NCBI RefSeq assembly: GCF_000953295.1
Contig: NZ_LN649255.1
Location: 150,001 to 182,000 of the forward strand
DNA length: 32,000 nt
Direction of reading: 5' to 3'
From: Candidatus Portiera aleyrodidarum
GTDB taxonomy: Bacteria > Pseudomonadota > Gammaproteobacteria > Johnevansiales > Johnevansiaceae
The notes under the pieces were generated by a model that worked only from the letters and a program-made list of their open reading frames with translations, was not told the origin of the DNA and made no database searches. The translations under genes and the position numbers were made by a program. Below, piece after piece: positions 1-23,655 of the stretch (its first letter is position 1; every line of letters begins with the position of its first letter).

Positions 1-527
1 TAGCCAAAATGCTTAATTTAGATTATCCAGGAGGGAAAAAATTATCTAATTTAGCTAAAGTAGGAAATAATAAAAAATTAATATTTCCTAAATCTTTTTT
101 ATATGAAACTAATTTAAAGTTTAGTTTTTCTGGAATTAAAACATATATTTTTAATATATTAAAAAATAAAAAAAACAATTCTCAATATAAAGCTAATTTA
201 GCAAAATCTTTTGAAGAATATATTATTAATATACTAAGTATAAAATCTTTTCATGCTTTAAAAAAATATGGTAGAGTTAATCTTTTAGTTTCTGGAGGAG
301 TAAGTGCAAATAAGAATTTACGTAATAAGTTAAAAAAACAATTAAAAAAATATATAAATAAATTAAAAATTTATTTTCCAAATAAAAAACTTTGTACAGA
401 TAATGCGGCAATGATTGCTTATCTAGGTGCTCTTCGTATAAATTCAGGAGAAAAAGTATATAAGAATATTAAGATATTTCCTAAATGGCCTTTAGAAAAA
501 CTAAAATATCCTTTATATAATAATTAG
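1..527 (+). CDS. tsaD: tRNA N6-adenosine threonylcarbamoyltransferase TsaD, C-terminal part (5' end lies outside the window)
   Basis: The frame is open from base 3. The translation carries TsaD/Kae1 C-terminal motifs: LDYPGG, FSFSGIK, GGVSAN, CTDNAAMIA, PKWPLE. TAG stop at 525-527. Confidence 0.9.
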   Translation, partial: AKMLNLDYPGGKKLSNLAKVGNNKKLIFPKSFLYETNLKFSFSGIKTYIFNILKNKKNNSQYKANLAKSFEEYIINILSIKSFHALKKYGRVNLLVSGGVSANKNLRNKLKKQLKKYINKLKIYFPNKKLCTDNAAMIAYLGALRINSGEKVYKNIKIFPKWPLEKLKYPLYNN

Positions 528-3645: not shown

Positions 3646-4467
3646 TTATAACTTCCTTATAATAATTTTATTGACGGATCGGACGGGACTTGAACCCGTG
3701 TTTTCGGTTCGACAAACCGATATTCTATCCTTCTGAACTACCGATCCTTTTTTGGGTAGTGCAAGATTCGAACTTGCGACCCTCAGTTTGTAAAACTGAT
3801 GCTCTTCCTTCTGAGCTAACCACCCTTGATTTAATAAATTATATAATGCTAAACGAATAATATAATTTGATTCTGGGAGACGTTCTATATCTAAGATTTT
3901 TATATATTTATTTATTTTTTTTATTCTATTTAAATATAAAACTCCTCTTCCTGTACAAACAAATTTTTTTAAAATAATGTTTTTTATATTATTTTTTTTA
4001 TTTATATTTATTTTTTTTTCTTTAATTAAAGATATAGGTATATAATAAAAAAAGTTTTTTTTTAATTCAAAAAAACCTATATTATATATATTTTTTTTTA
4101 TTTTAATAACACTAATTACATACTTATAATTATAATCAAACCATACACCTAAAGCCAGAGCTTTTAATTTTGAAATTTCTAATATTGGGATATTTAATAT
4201 ATATGATATTCCTTTACTTATACATTTTATTATTCTAATACATTTTATATCTCCTATTAATTTCCCATAAATAATATAATTAATTTCTGATAAATTAATT
4301 TTTTTTTTATTTAAAAAATTTTTTAAAAAAATAAAAAATAAAATCTTATTTTTATATATATTTTTTTTATAAAATCCAATTATATTTATAAATTTCTTTT
4401 TTTGAAATTTAAATAAAGATATAGAATAAACATTATAAGTATAATCAATAGATAAAAATATTTTCAT
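3646..4467 (-). CDS. tsaB: tRNA threonylcarbamoyladenosine biosynthesis protein TsaB (YeaZ-like). The ORF lacks its own stop and reads through tRNA-Val and tRNA-Asp.
   Basis: Codons 1-214 (4467-3826) are collinear with TsaB. MKIFLSIDYT matches ILAIDTAT, LSEINYIIYGK..IR matches LTDI.ALAYGRGPGSFTGVR, and the tail is LPESNYIIRLALYNLLNQG. The first in-frame stop is TAA at 3646-3648. The remaining 59 codons are encoded by the two tRNA genes and the rpsF leader. Confidence 0.7.
   Translation of the reverse strand: MKIFLSIDYTYNVYSISLFKFQKKKFINIIGFYKKNIYKNKILFFIFLKNFLNKKKINLSEINYIIYGKLIGDIKCIRIIKCISKGISYILNIPILEISKLKALALGVWFDYNYKYVISVIKIKKNIYNIGFFELKKNFFYYIPISLIKEKKININKKNNIKNIILKKFVCTGRGVLYLNRIKKINKYIKILDIERLPESNYIIRLALYNLLNQGWLAQKEEHQFYKLRVASSNLALPKKGSVVQKDRISVCRTENTGSSPVRSVNKIIIRKL
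3652..3658 (-). promoter_or_regulatory. Shine-Dalgarno site of rpsF (AAGGAAG)
   Basis: AAGGAAG on the minus strand, 8 nt upstream of the rpsF ATG (3643). It lies inside the last codons of the tsaB read-through ORF. Confidence 0.5.
3675..3747 (-). tRNA. tRNA-Asp (anticodon GUC)
   Basis: I folded the cloverleaf by hand. Acceptor GGATCGG/CCGATCC, anticodon stem TCGGT/ACCGA with loop TT-GTC-GA, T-arm ACGGG-TTCAAGT-CCCGT. No encoded CCA. Confidence 0.9.
3753..3825 (-). tRNA. tRNA-Val (anticodon UAC)
   Basis: Acceptor GGGTGGT/ACTACCC, anticodon stem TCAGT/ACTGA with loop TT-TAC-AA, T-loop TTCGAAT. Separated from tRNA-Asp by 5 nt. No encoded CCA. Confidence 0.9.
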
Positions 4468-13303: not shown

Positions 13304-13342
13304 TATTTAATAATTTTTTTATTATTATATTAATAATCTTAC

Positions 13343-13370
13343 TTGTCAATATTAACTATATTAATATAAA
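13343..13370 (+). promoter_or_regulatory. Candidate sigma70-type promoter for infA-mnmA (TTGTCA-16 nt-TATAAA)
   Basis: TTGTCA at 13343-13348 and TATAAA at 13365-13370, in the divergent spacer between tRNA-Glu (-) and infA (+). -10-like hexamers are abundant in DNA this AT-rich, so support is weak. Confidence 0.25.
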
Positions 13371-13394
13371 GATTACGATATAATTAATATATTT

Positions 13395-13399
13395 AGGAG
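13395..13399 (+). promoter_or_regulatory. Shine-Dalgarno site of infA (AGGAG)
   Basis: AGGAG lies 8 nt upstream of the infA ATG at 13408. Confidence 0.55.
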
Positions 13400-13407
13400 A
13401 AGAAATT

Positions 13408-17787: not shown

Positions 17788-19215
17788 TTATCCTAAAGAA
17801 CCTTCTAAAGTTATTTCTAATAAAGATTCTGCTTCAACTGCAAATTCCATTGGTAAATTTTGAAATACATCTTTACAAAACCCATTAACTATCAGATTTA
17901 TAGTATCTTCTTTTTTTATTCCTCTTTGCATACAATAAAAAATTTGATCTTTATTTATTTTATAAGCTGTCGCTTCATGTTCTAATATCGATGTTTTATT
18001 TTTTATATTTTGATAAGGGATAGTATATATGATACTATTATTGCCTATTATTAATGAATCACATTGGGTATAATTTCTTGATTTGATAGAATTTTTTGTT
18101 ATTTTTACTAAACCTCTATACGCTTGTTTTGATTTTCCAATTGCTATGCCTTTCGCTATTATCGTTGATTTAGTATATTTACCAACATGAATCATTTTTG
18201 TCCCAGTATCTGCTATTTGTTTATTTTTAGTTATAGTTACTGAATAAAATTCCCCCTTAGAATTATCTCCTTTAAGTATACAAGAAGGATATTTCCATGT
18301 AATGGCTGAACCTATTTCTAATTGTATCCAACTAATTCTAGATCTCAAACCATTACATAATCCACGTTTAGTTACAAAATTATAAATACCGCCTATACCT
18401 TTTTCATTACCTGGATACCAATTTTGTACTGTAGAATATTTTATATAACTATCTTCAAAAGCTATTAATTCTACTACAGCAGCATGTAATTGATTTTCAT
18501 CATAAATTGTTGCAGTGCATCCTTCCAAATATGAAACACTTGATCTTTTTTCACATATAATTAATGTTCTTTCAAATTGTCCTGTCTTATTAGTATTCAT
18601 TCTAAAATAAGTAGATAATTCAATAGGACATTTTATGCCTTCCGGTATAAAAACAAAAGTTCCATCTGTAAAAACTGCTGAATTTAACGCTGAAAAATAA
18701 TTATCATCTTGCCGAACAACAGAACCTAAATATATTTTTATTATATAAGAATATTTTTTTATTGCTTCTGAAATAGAACAAAAAATAATTCCTAAGTTAT
18801 ATAATTTTTCTTTATAAGTAGTAGCAATTGATACAGAATCAAATACTGCATCTACTGCTATTCCTTTAATTTTATTATTTTCATATAAATTTACACCTAA
18901 TTTTTTATAGGAATATAAGAATTTTTTATTTAAATATTTTTTTTTTGGAGAACTAAAAAAAGAAATTTCTTTATAATTTATTTTAGGTGTTTTAAATATA
19001 GCCCAAAAAGGTGGTTTCATATTTAACCATTTATAATAAGATCTTAATCTCCATTTTAACATCCAGTTTGGTTCTTTTTTATATTTTGATATATTATTTA
19101 TTATTTTTTTATTTAATCCAGGTAATTGTATATTACAATCTATATTTATTTTAAAACCATGTTTATATTTTTTTTTATATAATTTTTTTAAAATCTTATT
19201 ATTTGTATTTATCAA
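17788..19215 (-). CDS. sufB: Fe-S cluster assembly scaffold SufB
   Basis: 475-aa ORF collinear with SufB. Contains EPNWMLKWRL, AVFTDGTFVFIP, TGQFERTLII, NWYPG and a HEAT.. region. TTG start at 19215. Confidence 0.95.
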   Translation of the reverse strand: MINTNNKILKKLYKKKYKHGFKINIDCNIQLPGLNKKIINNISKYKKEPNWMLKWRLRSYYKWLNMKPPFWAIFKTPKINYKEISFFSSPKKKYLNKKFLYSYKKLGVNLYENNKIKGIAVDAVFDSVSIATTYKEKLYNLGIIFCSISEAIKKYSYIIKIYLGSVVRQDDNYFSALNSAVFTDGTFVFIPEGIKCPIELSTYFRMNTNKTGQFERTLIICEKRSSVSYLEGCTATIYDENQLHAAVVELIAFEDSYIKYSTVQNWYPGNEKGIGGIYNFVTKRGLCNGLRSRISWIQLEIGSAITWKYPSCILKGDNSKGEFYSVTITKNKQIADTGTKMIHVGKYTKSTIIAKGIAIGKSKQAYRGLVKITKNSIKSRNYTQCDSLIIGNNSIIYTIPYQNIKNKTSILEHEATAYKINKDQIFYCMQRGIKKEDTINLIVNGFCKDVFQNLPMEFAVEAESLLEITLEGSLG

Positions 19216-19226
19216 AATTCTAATCT

Positions 19227-19384
19227 CTAAATATTATTTTTTAATATAATAGTATCAGTTCTTACAGGTCCAGTAGATATCCCTATTTCATTTTCTATAC
19301 CTTTAGTAGGTTTGATTTCTTTATCTCTAACCCTGTGTCCCTTTACTTATGTCTTCCTATTATTACTATATTTTTACCAATCAT
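19227..19384 (-). pseudogene. purA: Relic of adenylosuccinate synthetase (purA): N-terminal and C-terminal codons only, in different frames
   Basis: The ATG at 19384 gives MIGKNIVIIGRHK*, compared with PurA MGKNVVVLGTQWGDEGKGK. A second frame (19346-19230) gives ..IKPTKGIENEIGISTGPVRTDTIILKNNI*, compared with the PurA C-terminus ..[28 protein letters not shown]. It lies directly downstream of hisZ, as in the canonical hisZ-purA arrangement. Confidence 0.75.
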
Positions 19385-19406
19385 ATTTTTCTTAATTTTA
19401 TTTTTT

Positions 19407-20588
19407 TTATAATGATATTACTTGCCATTCTTTATTTATCAAACATAATTTTCTATTACAATTATTTTCATTTAAATTAATAATTTGATTTGGTAATTCT
19501 TGTATTACTTTTTCACCATAAAATCTTAATTCCTCAATTTTTTGTTTTAATTTTAAATCATCTAAATCTGGAGCCCAGATTCCTTCTATATTATTTTTTT
19601 TTTCATTTAATAATGTCAATAAATTTAAATCCATAGTACAACCCGTCGAAGGTCTTTTTTTTCCATAATTTTTTCCAATATCATATCTACCTCCTTTAGC
19701 TATAGATTGTACAATTCCTGATACATAAACTGTAAATATTATACCATTATGATATTGATAACCTTTAAAATCAGACAAATCAAAATATATTGATATATTT
19801 TTATAATTTTTCTTAATAAATTTATATATAATTATTAACTGATCCAAAGCAATTTTAATATCTTCCAGAAAGGATATTTTTTTATATGCTGATTTAAGCA
19901 TATTAAAATCACCATGTAATCTTGGTAATATTTTTAATATTTTACTTATATTTAAATCTATATTTATTTTTTTTATTATATTTTCAACATCTGTATATGA
20001 TTTATTTTCTATTGATTCAAATAAAATATTTAAATATTCTTTTTCTATTTTAGATTTTTTTATTAATATCCTATATATACCTAGGTGCCCAAAAGATAAA
20101 TTTATTTTTTTTGCTCCAGATAATCTTAAACTTTTAATAGTAAGATTTATTATTTCTATATCTGCTTCAATCCCAATATAACCTAATAATTCTATGCCAA
20201 CTTGTATAGGATTTCTTCCTAAATCATTTTGTTCCTCAACTGTAAAAGCTCTAAAAACATTTGTACAATAACATATTCTATATGGACCTTGATTTTTTAA
20301 TATACGAGAATCTAACCTTGCAATTTGTGGAGTTGAATCTGCACTTAAACCAATTAATTTCCCACTTAATGTATCTATTAATTTGAATGTCTGTAATTCT
20401 AAATCAGATCCTACATTATTTAATAATGTTTCTAAATATTCGATTTGTGTAGTAATAACAAAATTATAACCATATTTATAATATAAATCTAATAAATCTC
20501 TTCTTGTTTTTTCTAATTTTATTGCTTGATTTGGTAAGATTTCATTTATCCCATCCGGTAATAAAAAAGTTTTCATAATTTTTTTCAT
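19407..20588 (-). CDS. hisZ: ATP phosphoribosyltransferase regulatory subunit HisZ (HisRS paralogue)
   Basis: 393-aa class-II aaRS-like ORF with LLPDGINEILP, TFKLID..GKLIGLSADSTPQIARLD and GGRYD. It lacks an anticodon-binding domain. A genuine hisS lies elsewhere in the window. It sits upstream of the purA relic. Confidence 0.8.
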   Translation of the reverse strand: MKKIMKTFLLPDGINEILPNQAIKLEKTRRDLLDLYYKYGYNFVITTQIEYLETLLNNVGSDLELQTFKLIDTLSGKLIGLSADSTPQIARLDSRILKNQGPYRICYCTNVFRAFTVEEQNDLGRNPIQVGIELLGYIGIEADIEIINLTIKSLRLSGAKKINLSFGHLGIYRILIKKSKIEKEYLNILFESIENKSYTDVENIIKKINIDLNISKILKILPRLHGDFNMLKSAYKKISFLEDIKIALDQLIIIYKFIKKNYKNISIYFDLSDFKGYQYHNGIIFTVYVSGIVQSIAKGGRYDIGKNYGKKRPSTGCTMDLNLLTLLNEKKNNIEGIWAPDLDDLKLKQKIEELRFYGEKVIQELPNQIINLNENNCNRKLCLINKEWQVISL

Positions 20589-20610
20589 AATTTTATATTA
20601 TTTATTTTTA

Positions 20611-21555
20611 TTATATATTATATTTTTTTATCCAATATCTTGAAATATTACTTTTTAATAAATATATGAAATAATCACTTATTTTTGGATTACAAGCATC
20701 TAACCAAAAAGCATCATTAAATTTACGTAACCATAATTTTTGTTTTTTTGCTAAATTTCTATTAGCAGCTAATAATTTTTCTTTTAATATAAAAAAATTA
20801 TATTTCCCATCAATATATTCCCAAACTTGACGATAACCTATACTTTGCATAGCTGGTAATTCCAAATACATATTTTTCATATTTTTTAAAAATTCTACTT
20901 CTGTAATCAAACCACTTTCTAACATAAAATTTAACCTAAAAAAAATATTTTTATATAAAATATCTTTATTATTATGTGTTACTATAAATTTTATTACCTC
21001 ACATGGAAAATTTTCTTTATTTTTTTTTTGCCAAAAAAAATTAATAAATTTATTAGTATTTAAATATACTTCTAAAAATCTTTTATTTCTATAAATATCA
21101 TTATTATTTATTTCTTTTTTTATAAATTTATTTTTTTTAAATATTTTTTTTAATAATAAAAAATAATATTTATCATAATGTTCTATTTTATATTTTAAAA
21201 CCGGTATTTTAGCAATTCCTTCCAATAAAATATTAAAATAAAACATAGAACCACCAACTAATATTGGAATTTTTCCAGAAGTACTAATTTTTTTCATTGC
21301 TTTTAATGCATCATTTCGAAAATTCCAAACTGAATATATTTCATAAGGATATCTTATATCTATTAATTCATGATATATCTTTTTAGGTTTTGCTGTACCG
21401 ATATTCATATATCTATAAACCATAGCTGAATCAACACTAATTAATTCACAATTTAATAACTTTTTTAATTTTATAGCTAATTCTGTTTTTCCTGATGCAG
21501 TTGTCCCCATTAAAAAAATAGCAATTGGTTTTTTATTATATATTTTCATAATCAA
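20611..21555 (-). CDS. miaA: tRNA dimethylallyltransferase MiaA
   Basis: Contains the P-loop LMGTTASGKTELAI, DSAMVYRYMNIGTAKP, GGSMFY, and QSIGYRQ. The ORF-track start is TTG at 21555. The ATG at 21549 is the more likely start. Confidence 0.9.
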   Translation of the reverse strand: MIMKIYNKKPIAIFLMGTTASGKTELAIKLKKLLNCELISVDSAMVYRYMNIGTAKPKKIYHELIDIRYPYEIYSVWNFRNDALKAMKKISTSGKIPILVGGSMFYFNILLEGIAKIPVLKYKIEHYDKYYFLLLKKIFKKNKFIKKEINNNDIYRNKRFLEVYLNTNKFINFFWQKKNKENFPCEVIKFIVTHNNKDILYKNIFFRLNFMLESGLITEVEFLKNMKNMYLELPAMQSIGYRQVWEYIDGKYNFFILKEKLLAANRNLAKKQKLWLRKFNDAFWLDACNPKISDYFIYLLKSNISRYWIKKYNI

Positions 21556-23222
21556 CGTTTACGTAAAAATAAATTATCTAGTTTCTTATTAGAAATTTTA
21601 ATCCAAGTGGGTCGGCCATGATTACAAATTTTTATATTATTTGTTAATTCCATTTCACGTAAGAATGAATTCATTTCTATGATTGTTAATTTTTTATTTG
21701 ATCGTATACTATTATAACAAGAATATTTTATAAAAATTTTCTTTAAGTTATTTAATATATTTTTCTCAGAATCAATAATTTTTAATTTTTCAAAAATTTT
21801 TTTAATTATTAAATAAATATTTATATTTTTTAAAAAATAATTAGGTATTTCTTTTATTAAAATTATATTTGAATTTATTATTTCTAACGTTATTCCTAAT
21901 TTTAAAAAAATTTTTTGGTTTTTTTTTATTAAATAAATTAATTCATTATCTAATTTTAAATTTATAGGAAATAATAATTTTTGTTTTAAAGTTTTATTAT
22001 TAAATTGTTGTTTTTTTATTTTTTCATAAATCATTCTTTCATGAGCCGCATGTATATCTACAAGAATTAAACCTTCTTTATTTTGTGATATAATAAATTT
22101 TTCTTTATATTGACCTATAGCAAATCCTAAATAATTTTTATTATTTATTTTTTCTAAATTTAAATTTTCTTTTTTTTGATTTTTTTTTATTTTATTATTT
22201 TTTAATTTACAATTACTTTTTAATAAATTATAAATATTTTCATAAATAAAATTACTTATTATTTTTTTATTTACAAAATTAACTTTATACTTATTAGGAT
22301 GTACATTTATATCTAACATACTTTTTTTTATACTTATATATAAAATATATGATGGTTTTAAACCTTTAAACATAGTTTCATTATAAGCATTTAATATAAT
22401 TTTTTTTAAAAAAGGATCTTTTATTATTCTTCTATTTATAAAAATATATTGTTTATTTTTTCCAAAAATATAATTTGGTAAAATAAACCATCCTATAATT
22501 TTTATTTGATTATATTTATCAAGTTTATTTATAAACAAACTATTTTTTATAAAATTTTTACCAAAAATATTACTAATTCTATTTCGACATTCATTTATAT
22601 TTAAACAAGGTAATAATTTATATATATTTTTTTTATTTATAAAAGTCCAACAAATATCAAAACTTGATAAAACTAAATTATAAAACATTTCAACAATTTT
22701 ATTTTTTTCAATTCTATCACTAGATAAATTATTTAATTTTATAGGATTATTATAAAATAAATCACTTACAGATACAGTCGTACCTTTCAAATGTGGATAA
22801 GGAAAAATATCTATTCTTCCAAAATTTTTAGATATTCCATATCCTTTATAAGTTTCATTATAAGGATTAGATAATAAAGAATAATTAGATATTGATCCTA
22901 TTGCTGATAAAGCTTCACCTCTAAAACCTAATGTTTTAATATTATTAATCTCATAAAAATTACTTATTTTACTTGTTGCATTTTTTAAAAATACTAATTT
23001 TAAATCATCTTGATTTATTCCACAACCATTATCAACAACTTTTATTAATTTTTTCCCCCCTTTTTCTATATTTATTTTTATATTTTTACTTCCAGCATCT
23101 ATAGAATTTTCAACTAATTCTTTTAAAACATATGATGGATCTTTAATAAGTTCACCAGCTGAGATTTTATTTATTAAATGTTTATTTAGTATTTTTATTC
23201 TATTAAAGTTTTTTTCAATCAT
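21552..23222 (-). CDS. mutL: DNA mismatch repair protein MutL (endonuclease-type C-terminal domain)
   Basis: GHKL ATPase motifs are ELVENSIDAG, DNGCGI and GFRGEAL. C-terminal motifs are DIHAAHERMIYE, SCYNSIRSNKKL, CNHGRPTW and FLRKR. TGA stop at 21552-21554. Confidence 0.9.
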   Translation of the reverse strand: MIEKNFNRIKILNKHLINKISAGELIKDPSYVLKELVENSIDAGSKNIKINIEKGGKKLIKVVDNGCGINQDDLKLVFLKNATSKISNFYEINNIKTLGFRGEALSAIGSISNYSLLSNPYNETYKGYGISKNFGRIDIFPYPHLKGTTVSVSDLFYNNPIKLNNLSSDRIEKNKIVEMFYNLVLSSFDICWTFINKKNIYKLLPCLNINECRNRISNIFGKNFIKNSLFINKLDKYNQIKIIGWFILPNYIFGKNKQYIFINRRIIKDPFLKKIILNAYNETMFKGLKPSYILYISIKKSMLDINVHPNKYKVNFVNKKIISNFIYENIYNLLKSNCKLKNNKIKKNQKKENLNLEKINNKNYLGFAIGQYKEKFIISQNKEGLILVDIHAAHERMIYEKIKKQQFNNKTLKQKLLFPINLKLDNELIYLIKKNQKIFLKLGITLEIINSNIILIKEIPNYFLKNINIYLIIKKIFEKLKIIDSEKNILNNLKKIFIKYSCYNSIRSNKKLTIIEMNSFLREMELTNNIKICNHGRPTWIKISNKKLDNLFLRKR

Positions 23223-23229
23223 AAGATTT

Positions 23230-23655
23230 TTATTTTATATATTTATTTAAATAATATAATTTATATAATTTTATATTTCCTAAAAATAAATTTATTAATA
23301 AATTTATTTTATAAATTTTTTTATATTTTTTTAAATATATATATTTTTTTATTCTTATAAAATTATATATATATAATTTTTTTAAATATATATATTTAAT
23401 AATTTGTATTTTATTTATCTTTTTTTTCAAAATATATATTTTTTTATATTTGATAAAATATATATCAATATTAAAAATATTATTTTTTTTTAATAAATTA
23501 TAATTAATTAAAATTTTTTTTATAAGTTTTATTTTTTTTATATTTCCTAAAATATATATTTTTTTTAAATTTTTTAAATTTATATTAAATATTTTTTTTA
23601 TAATATATTTTTCACTTAATTTTAGTTTATTTATTGGAAATAAAATTTTTTTCAT
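23230..23655 (-). CDS. Hypothetical 141-aa K/I/Y/N-rich protein, possibly a degenerate TsaE (YjeE)
   Basis: A 141-codon ORF with no stops is unlikely by chance in DNA this AT-rich. It lies immediately upstream of mutL, where tsaE(-amiB) sits in many proteobacteria. [19 protein letters not shown] aligns positionally to TsaE [20 protein letters not shown], and IFNIDIYFI aligns to VYHFDLYRL. There is no other recognisable similarity. Confidence 0.35.

Follow-up and report, generated by a model that had tools for sequence, protein, structure and literature searches.

The hisZ-sufB spacer of Candidatus Portiera aleyrodidarum is very probably a remnant of purA

Results

The hisZ-sufB locus

The locus described here lies in the window, the whole stretch of 32,000 nt (32 kb) that was analyzed, from the whitefly symbiont Candidatus Portiera aleyrodidarum. 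According to NCBIfam models, the minus strand carries, in this order, mutL, miaA, hisZ, a 191-bp spacer, sufB, sufC, sufD and sufS, with the following coordinates around the spacer:

21552-23222, minus strand: mutL (NCBIfam model)
20611-21555, minus strand: miaA (NCBIfam model)
19407-20588, minus strand: hisZ, ATP phosphoribosyltransferase regulatory subunit, the upstream neighbor (NCBIfam NF008935, E 6e-114)
19216-19406: hisZ-sufB spacer, 191 bp
17788-19215, minus strand: sufB, the downstream neighbor and first gene of sufBCDS (NCBIfam NF008773)

HisZ scored above the cut-offs of NF008935 (380.9 bits; cut-off 350) and NF009086, both of them HisZ models of NCBIfam, and SufB scored 747 bits against the NF008773 cut-off of 717. 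The original prediction, which read the spacer as a relic of the adenylosuccinate synthetase gene purA, had described it as the longest non-coding stretch in the window and as less AT-rich than other spacers, and both descriptions held. At 191 bp it is the longest stretch of the window with neither an ORF nor an RNA gene, the second-longest being 104 bp (13304-13407), and its GC content is 24.1%, compared with 0-18.5% in the other spacers and 20.4% in the whole window.

The HisZ protein of the window is 99% identical to that of Portiera P0001 (LN734649, a 290,376-bp chromosome; locus L007); its identity is 70-75% with HisZ from other Portiera and 41-46% with HisZ from Halomonadaceae. A HisZ peptide-pattern scan of genome contigs confirmed no relative. 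The free-living Halomonadaceae Carnimonas and Halomonas have the gene order mutL-miaA-hfq-hflX-hflK-hflC-hisZ-purA, in which the predicted adjacency of hisZ and purA was indeed found, and the hisZ-sufB spacer therefore lies at the place expected for purA.

Two purA-like peptides in different frames

Translation of the minus strand recovered both peptides from which the relic had been predicted. An ATG at 19384 opens MIGKNIVIIGRHK, followed by a TAA at 19345-19343, and another frame reads VKGHRVRDKEIKPTKGIENEIGISTGPVRTDTIILKNNI (tail IENEIGISTGPVRTDTIILKNNI) up to a TAG stop at 19229-19227; the two recognizable purA pieces thus lie in different frames. A functional PurA ORF (~430 codons) is absent, and the minus strand of the spacer is without a listed ORF of at least 20 codons. 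The C-terminal frame contains no ATG, GTG or TTG, and no second purA was found in the 32-kb window. The GTP-binding P-loop GDEGKGK is also absent, with the relic reading ..IIGRHK and then a stop where intact copies read ..IIGIQWGDEGKGK; what might be left of this motif is at most a doubtful AGTAAAGG trace.

Intact purA at the same position in other Portiera lineages

Rather than an unrelated gene, it is purA that occupies this position in relatives, where an intact copy was found exactly between hisZ and sufB in three Portiera lineages (loci L008, L009 and L010/L011). The predicted PurA protein has 439 aa in L008, 428 aa in L009 and 437 aa in both L010 and L011. The DNA of L008 is 98.7% identical to that of Portiera PeMo (NZ_LR744089; 277,700 bp), and its PurA belongs to a protein cluster that includes an annotated adenylosuccinate synthase from Portiera PeMo, WP_320412034.1; a scan of DNA patterns for the purA 5′ end matched Portiera PeMo only. 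PurA of L009 starts with MIGKNIVIIGIQWGDEGKGK, which the start of the relic matches at 10/10 residues. Over the last 28 residues of the L009 protein, the relic is identical at 20/23 positions after a 5-codon deletion and has the same stop. These matches to L009, together with the orthologous intact genes in three lineages, bear out the predicted identity of the relic. The intact copies agree at 93-96% of first and second codon positions and at 73-86% of third positions, a pattern by which intact Portiera purA is judged to be under purifying selection.

The ancestral purA stop TAG has become AAG in L008 and L010 (L008:4098-4114, L010:5298-5314), where PurA is 9-11 residues longer and overlaps the start of sufB by 17 nt. 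The purA remnants of the Trialeurodes vaporariorum and Bemisia tabaci symbionts, described below, share the TTAAGAGA variant with L008 and L010.

Anatomy of the relic

Of the 1287 nt of purA, 158 are left, meaning that ~88% of the gene was lost, and ~42 of its 428 codons remain, split over two frames. From the hisZ end to the sufB end, the spacer is made up as follows:

19385-19406, minus strand: hisZ-purA leader, in which AAGAAA, 5 nt ahead of the ATG, is what was once the ribosome-binding region of purA
19355-19384, minus strand: purA codons 1-10 (MIGKNIVIIG), 10/10 residues as in L009 PurA
19326-19354, minus strand: core with the large-deletion junction, 41% GC, no purA match above shuffles
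19299-19325, minus strand: probable purA codons ~364-369 and 379-381 (DKEIKP-TKG), DKEIKP corresponding to DKNIKP
19278-19298, minus strand: purA codons 401-407 (IENEIGI), 16/17 nt as in L009, within the tblastn HSP (E 9e-8)
19227-19277, minus strand: purA codons 413-428 and original stop (STGPVRTDTIILKNNI), with the STGPVR motif, placed by profile HMM
19216-19226, minus strand: purA-sufB spacer, containing AGAGA as the ribosome-binding region of sufB, identical in L007

Aligned to the intact L009 interval, and counting along the minus strand with window position 19406 as spacer position 1, the matching segments were these:

Spacer nt 20-53, minus strand: four leader nt, codons 1-10 and 1 nt, 33/34 identical
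Spacer nt 91-108, minus strand: IK(P/Q)TKG, 15/18 identical
Spacer nt 109-125, minus strand: IENEIG, 16/17 identical
Spacer nt 126-183, minus strand: from the G/I codon boundary (the rest of IENEIGI) through STGPVRTDTIILKNNI and TAG to 3 nt beyond, 49/58 identical

In the intact loci L009 and L008, the leader has its aligned counterpart in the hisZ-purA spacer of 21-22 nt; the leader has a GC content of 4.5% and is identical in L007. From the ATG at 19384, the residual ORF runs past codons 1-10 to the TAA at 19345-19343, 13 codons in total. At spacer nt 53-81 (29 nt) no purA segment could be assigned, and local DNA alignment of nt 53-90 to intact purA scored 10, compared with 11.3 ± 1.5 for shuffles. 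MAFFT aligned the core with the GKG codons of the P-loop (AGTAAAGG), and codons 70-73 offer an 11-mer match of the same quality; these two candidates and a third, GTNTGR, were all rejected as ambiguous, with a score below the shuffle mean.

The C-terminal remnant probably extends back to codons ~364-381 (DKEIKPTKG), on the basis of a match that is suggestive only: ACTAAAGGT in 19299-19325 matches L008 at 9/9, and 16-28 of 2000 shuffles reached the DKEIKP score (P ~ 0.01). A resemblance of the relic's VKGHR to VKGWR of L008 is not colinear with the DKEIKP match and competes with it. Farther downstream, an in-frame 51-nt deletion (IVDYKKLPKKAKNYIRL) sits upstream of the IENEIGI codons and an in-frame 15-nt deletion (PIDII) upstream of codons 413-428. 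The STGPVR of the relic is a version of the STGPDR motif that ends 6/6 intact PurA sequences compared, the TAG at which the relic ends is that of L009 purA, and the TT(T/A)AGAGA motif at the purA-sufB spacer is kept in 7/7 aligned loci.

As judged from these alignments, the relic is the product of at least three deletions, one large, one of 51 nt and one of 15 nt, and possibly of a third small one (33 nt between DKNIKP and TKG). The original prediction that roughly nine-tenths of the gene had been removed is thus upheld, as is the series of deletions that it considered, while the single deletion that it offered as an alternative is not. Four-nt direct repeats flank the deleted segments in L009 (TATT..TATT for the 15-nt and ATAG..ATAG for the 51-nt segment), which would fit an origin of the small deletions by slippage, with modern L009 standing in for the ancestor.

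Comparison of the PurA similarity with chance expectation

Six-frame Smith-Waterman comparison of the spacer with Halomonas and Carnimonas PurA gave scores of 57 and 60, compared with 26.5 ± 3.2 (maximum 42-46) for dinucleotide shuffles, none of which (0/1000) reached them, and 0/2000 shuffles reached the score of the N-terminal peptide against PurA residues 1-15. We built a custom profile HMM from 117 non-Portiera PurA sequences and ran it with the HMMER filters off. The profile match foreseen by the original prediction was obtained for the C-terminal piece, which was placed on positions 406-428 of 430 (10.5 bits, E 1.4e-4) with a score above all 300 of 300 shuffles (maximum 8.9); the N-terminal piece was placed on positions 2-11 and alone was non-significant (E 0.44). 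A tblastn search of the C-terminal region of the relic against L009, likewise foreseen as a check, gave E 9e-8, and colinear DNA alignment of the spacer to the intact L009 interval scored 149, compared with 50.5 ± 6.0 for shuffles (0/300).

Searching with the relic peptides by hmmscan, we found no PurA or PF00709 match in Pfam or NCBIfam, and a PDB-wide phmmer search with either peptide returned nothing at E <= 10. A match of the relic peptides to UDP-g_GGTase was sub-threshold and was rejected as spurious. The empty searches are explained by fragments of only 10-25 residues and very large search spaces, and the case for purA thus rests on the targeted comparisons.

Divergence from a sister strain

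Between the window and L007 (LN734649), 13,182 nt could be aligned with 0 indels and 98-99% identity. The relic differs at 8/191 sites (4.2%), compared with 1.1-6.3% (about 3.5% overall) at third codon positions of 12 neighboring genes and 0-1.4% at their first and second codon positions; none of the other short spacers has changed. In the C-terminal frame, five changes are nonsynonymous and two synonymous, and two of them (P>A and V/E) hit the otherwise conserved STGPDR motif. Small as a sample of eight changes is, this substitution pattern indicates neutral decay at the silent-site rate. All eight differences fall within spacer nt 54-172, with none in the first 53 or last 19 nt, a clustering for which (119/191)^8 = 0.023 under a split chosen post hoc; given these substitution-free flanks, a degree of constraint might act on the ends of the relic.

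Since the two sister strains have the same 191-bp structure, the deletions are older than their split. Compared with L009, the 34 retained codons show eight synonymous and three nonsynonymous differences, an excess that points to purifying selection on purA through most of the period after these lineages separated. Inactivation of purA would accordingly seem to have come late, yet before the sister strains split.

A separate feature of the C-terminal remnant is that its frame (19227-19346, minus strand) runs for 39 codons without a stop (P ~ 0.011 for random sequence of the same composition), and that each deletion within it (15, 51 and perhaps 33 nt) has a length divisible by three. Purely neutral decay predicts neither, and both count against it.

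Other stages of purA decay in Portiera

Alignment of the spacer across related symbionts yielded the kind of intermediate stage that the original prediction had expected, as well as a smaller relic. In the Portiera of B. tabaci (CP007563, L003:7177-8408), the spacer is a 1232-bp full-length purA pseudogene with many stops and frameshifts, which matched L008 PurA by tblastn at E 1e-31 and in which 42 bp over TYPYVTSS are duplicated in tandem (TYPYVTSSTTIYLW, two copies around spacer nt 667-750). In T. vaporariorum-type Portiera (L001:7174-7276), the 103-bp hisZ-sufB spacer is a smaller purA relic: the exact 12-mer TGATGAGGGTAA, which represents the GDEGK codons of the P-loop (12/12), follows immediately on the hisZ stop, purA has kept its final ~51 nt, and the start codon and codons 1-12 are lost. 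Its colinear alignment scored 62, compared with 25 ± 5 for shuffles (0/300).

The closest relative of B. tabaci Portiera is L010 (94% nt identity in hisZ), and that of T. vaporariorum Portiera is the PeMo-like L008. Because both relatives keep an intact purA, the two losses were independent of each other. As regain of a lost gene is impossible, Portiera has lost purA on at least three independent occasions. The near-full-length B. tabaci pseudogene resembles the relic of the window in gene, position, conserved 3′ end and sufB ribosome-binding region, and differs from it in being almost full length, in its stops and frameshifts, in the 42-bp duplication and in its independent loss. Its length fits the expanded intergenic regions described for that lineage (PMC5322561, PMC7821994).

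The original prediction had also called such a scar rare in a genome from which other lost genes vanished without trace. Within the window this is apt: the ~4.4 kb of hfq-hflX-hflK-hflC found in free-living Halomonadaceae have gone from the miaA-hisZ spacer (20589-20610; 22 bp, 0% GC) without recognizable trace, in contrast to the adjoining purA scar. Within the clade it is not, given the purA remnants of T. vaporariorum and B. tabaci Portiera.

Discussion

Origin of the relic

It is very probable, from the comparisons above, that the hisZ-sufB spacer is what is left of purA, the gene for adenylosuccinate synthetase, and that this remnant has no function and evolves neutrally. Set beside intact PurA (PF00709; Portiera PeMo WP_320412034.1 and Halomonadaceae), the relic lies at the same position downstream of hisZ, is identical to it at the N-terminus (MIGKNIVIIG), and shares its C-terminus (STGP(D)R..DTII(L/F)KN), stop codon and flanking spacers; unlike intact PurA, it lacks the P-loop and the whole catalytic core and evolves at the silent-site rate, which makes it a remnant and not a functional member of the family. 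The Portiera ancestor would have carried purA between hisZ and sufB, and the gene would have been inactivated in the lineage leading to the window genome and its sister LN734649. One large and at least two small deletions would then have reduced ~1287 nt to 158 nt, leaving the native leader, the start codon, codons 1-10 and a mosaic of codons ~364-428 with the original stop. We infer that the ends persist for geometric reasons, since a deletion that removes them must stop within the true spacers of 22 nt and 11 nt or else damage hisZ or sufB.

Alternative explanations

A rival explanation, which we regard as unlikely, is that the ends of purA are selected as cis-regulatory DNA, the 3′ ~50-80 nt as promoter and ribosome-binding site of sufBCDS and the 5′ ~50 nt as signals that end hisZ. 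Where purA is intact, sufB begins 11 nt after it or overlaps it by 17 nt, and any sufB-specific promoter must therefore lie inside purA. Consistent with such a role, each of the three independent decays has spared the last ~50 nt of purA, the TT(T/A)AGAGA motif and, ~35 nt upstream of sufB, a TATATT/CATATT element are conserved across lineages, two sigma-70-like matches lie on the gene strand (19272-19243 and 19244-19217, both 9-of-12), and the first 53 and last 19 nt carry 0 substitutions relative to L007 (P ~ 0.02, post hoc). However, promoter-like matches are no commoner in the spacer than in shuffles (9 compared with 6.0 ± 2.7), and TATATT simply spells codons of DTIIL, a conserved motif, in a genome rich in AT. 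The minus (gene) strand of the spacer contains no terminator-like hairpin, the spacer RNA folds no better than shuffles (z = -0.5), and Rfam gave no spacer match at E <= 1. In T. vaporariorum Portiera, the loss of the start codon and codons 1-12 argues that the 5′ block is dispensable there, and in B. tabaci the ends of the pseudogene are no better conserved than its interior (sliding identity to L010). The suggestion in the original prediction that the ends persist because they hold the hisZ terminator or the sufB promoter is therefore not supported by the hairpin and promoter searches. If the ends were regulatory, this would explain the segment kept in three decays, the in-frame small deletions and the substitution-free flanks; that selection holds these dead ends as regulatory DNA, for example as a sufBCDS promoter in the last ~50-80 nt, nonetheless appears quite improbable from the sequence comparisons.

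Far less plausible is that translation of the 13-codon ORF (MIGKNIVIIGRHK, 19384-19343) continues from the native ribosome-binding region and that the ORF serves as a small peptide or leader ORF. Its Shine-Dalgarno-like AAGAAA and ATG are intact and its first 31 nt are identical in L007, but its sole internal difference from L007 is nonsynonymous (R/T), it has no counterpart in the micro-relic of T. vaporariorum Portiera and is disrupted in that of B. tabaci, its stop lies 127 nt from the sufB start, which is no coupling distance, and its sequence is fully accounted for as the purA N-terminus. That the PurA likeness arose by chance in AT-rich, lysine- and isoleucine-rich translated spacer DNA, as the empty peptide-alone searches of Pfam, NCBIfam and PDB and the low-complexity PurA matches elsewhere in the window (E 5e-4 to 0.2) might suggest, can be dismissed with near certainty, since no shuffle reached the observed scores (0/1000, 0/2000, 0/300), both pieces match the correct PurA ends in the correct order, strand and orthologous position, intact loci have the same stop codon and the same flanking spacers, and the intact orthologous loci L008, L009 and L010 already refute it.

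Precedent and implications

In Buchnera aphidicola, pseudogenes reportedly disintegrate under a deletional bias, as Mira, Ochman and Moran (2001) and Gomez-Valero et al. (2004) are said to have described. Such remnants and the neutrally decaying purA remnant proposed here have in common that a dispensable gene was inactivated and shortened by successive deletions, leaving a faintly similar spacer between conserved neighbors whose order is frozen; unlike the Buchnera example, Portiera presents four stages of purA in one clade (intact, 1232 bp, 191 bp and 103 bp). The purA scar is a clean and instructive example of the well-known gene disintegration in reduced endosymbiont genomes, and involves no new mechanism. 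Coupled with dated host divergences, the four stages form a natural series for deletion size, rate and the fate of dead DNA, and permit the stable lineages to be contrasted with the unstable B. tabaci lineage.

To judge from its sequence, the hisZ-sufB locus encodes no PurA activity. AMP would then come from the host or by another route, and a putative dependence on imported adenine nucleotides can reasonably be supposed. Models of adenine-nucleotide supply should treat the window strain and its sister as PurA-negative, and annotation should label the spacer as a purA remnant. The Portiera ancestor had purA. A 2015 comparison found the ancestral metabolism basically unchanged in Aleurodicinae (PMC5322561); if the lineage of the window is that of Aleurodicus, as inferred, at least purA was lost there after the subfamilies split. 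Those parts of the Portiera literature that concern purA or adenylosuccinate yielded no description of a purA relic, and the gene losses in Figure 5 of one paper may include purA (PMC7821994).

Other observations in the window and its relatives

The miaA gene is a single ORF in the window (20611-21555, 314 codons) and in L007 (310 codons), and is represented by two ORFs (184 and 103-104 aa) in T. vaporariorum-, PeMo- and L009-type Portiera (L001:5060-6004, L008:675-1595, L009:1961-2905). Its pseudogene status in strain TV-BCN had already been noted (PMC5322561).

At 3646-4467 (minus strand), a 273-codon ORF has a weak, sub-threshold TsaD/TsaB-like Pfam match (E 3e-4), and its last ~60 codons run across the genes for tRNA-Val and tRNA-Asp, which share its strand (3675-3747 and 3753-3825). 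Either a gene overlaps two tRNA genes here, or the 3′ end of the ORF is an artefact or part of a decayed gene.

Between ilvD and mutL lies a 141-codon ORF (23230-23655, minus strand) that overlaps the 3′ end of ilvD by 29 nt. It has no Pfam match and is conserved in L007, where its 426 nt differ by two substitutions, each at a third codon position.
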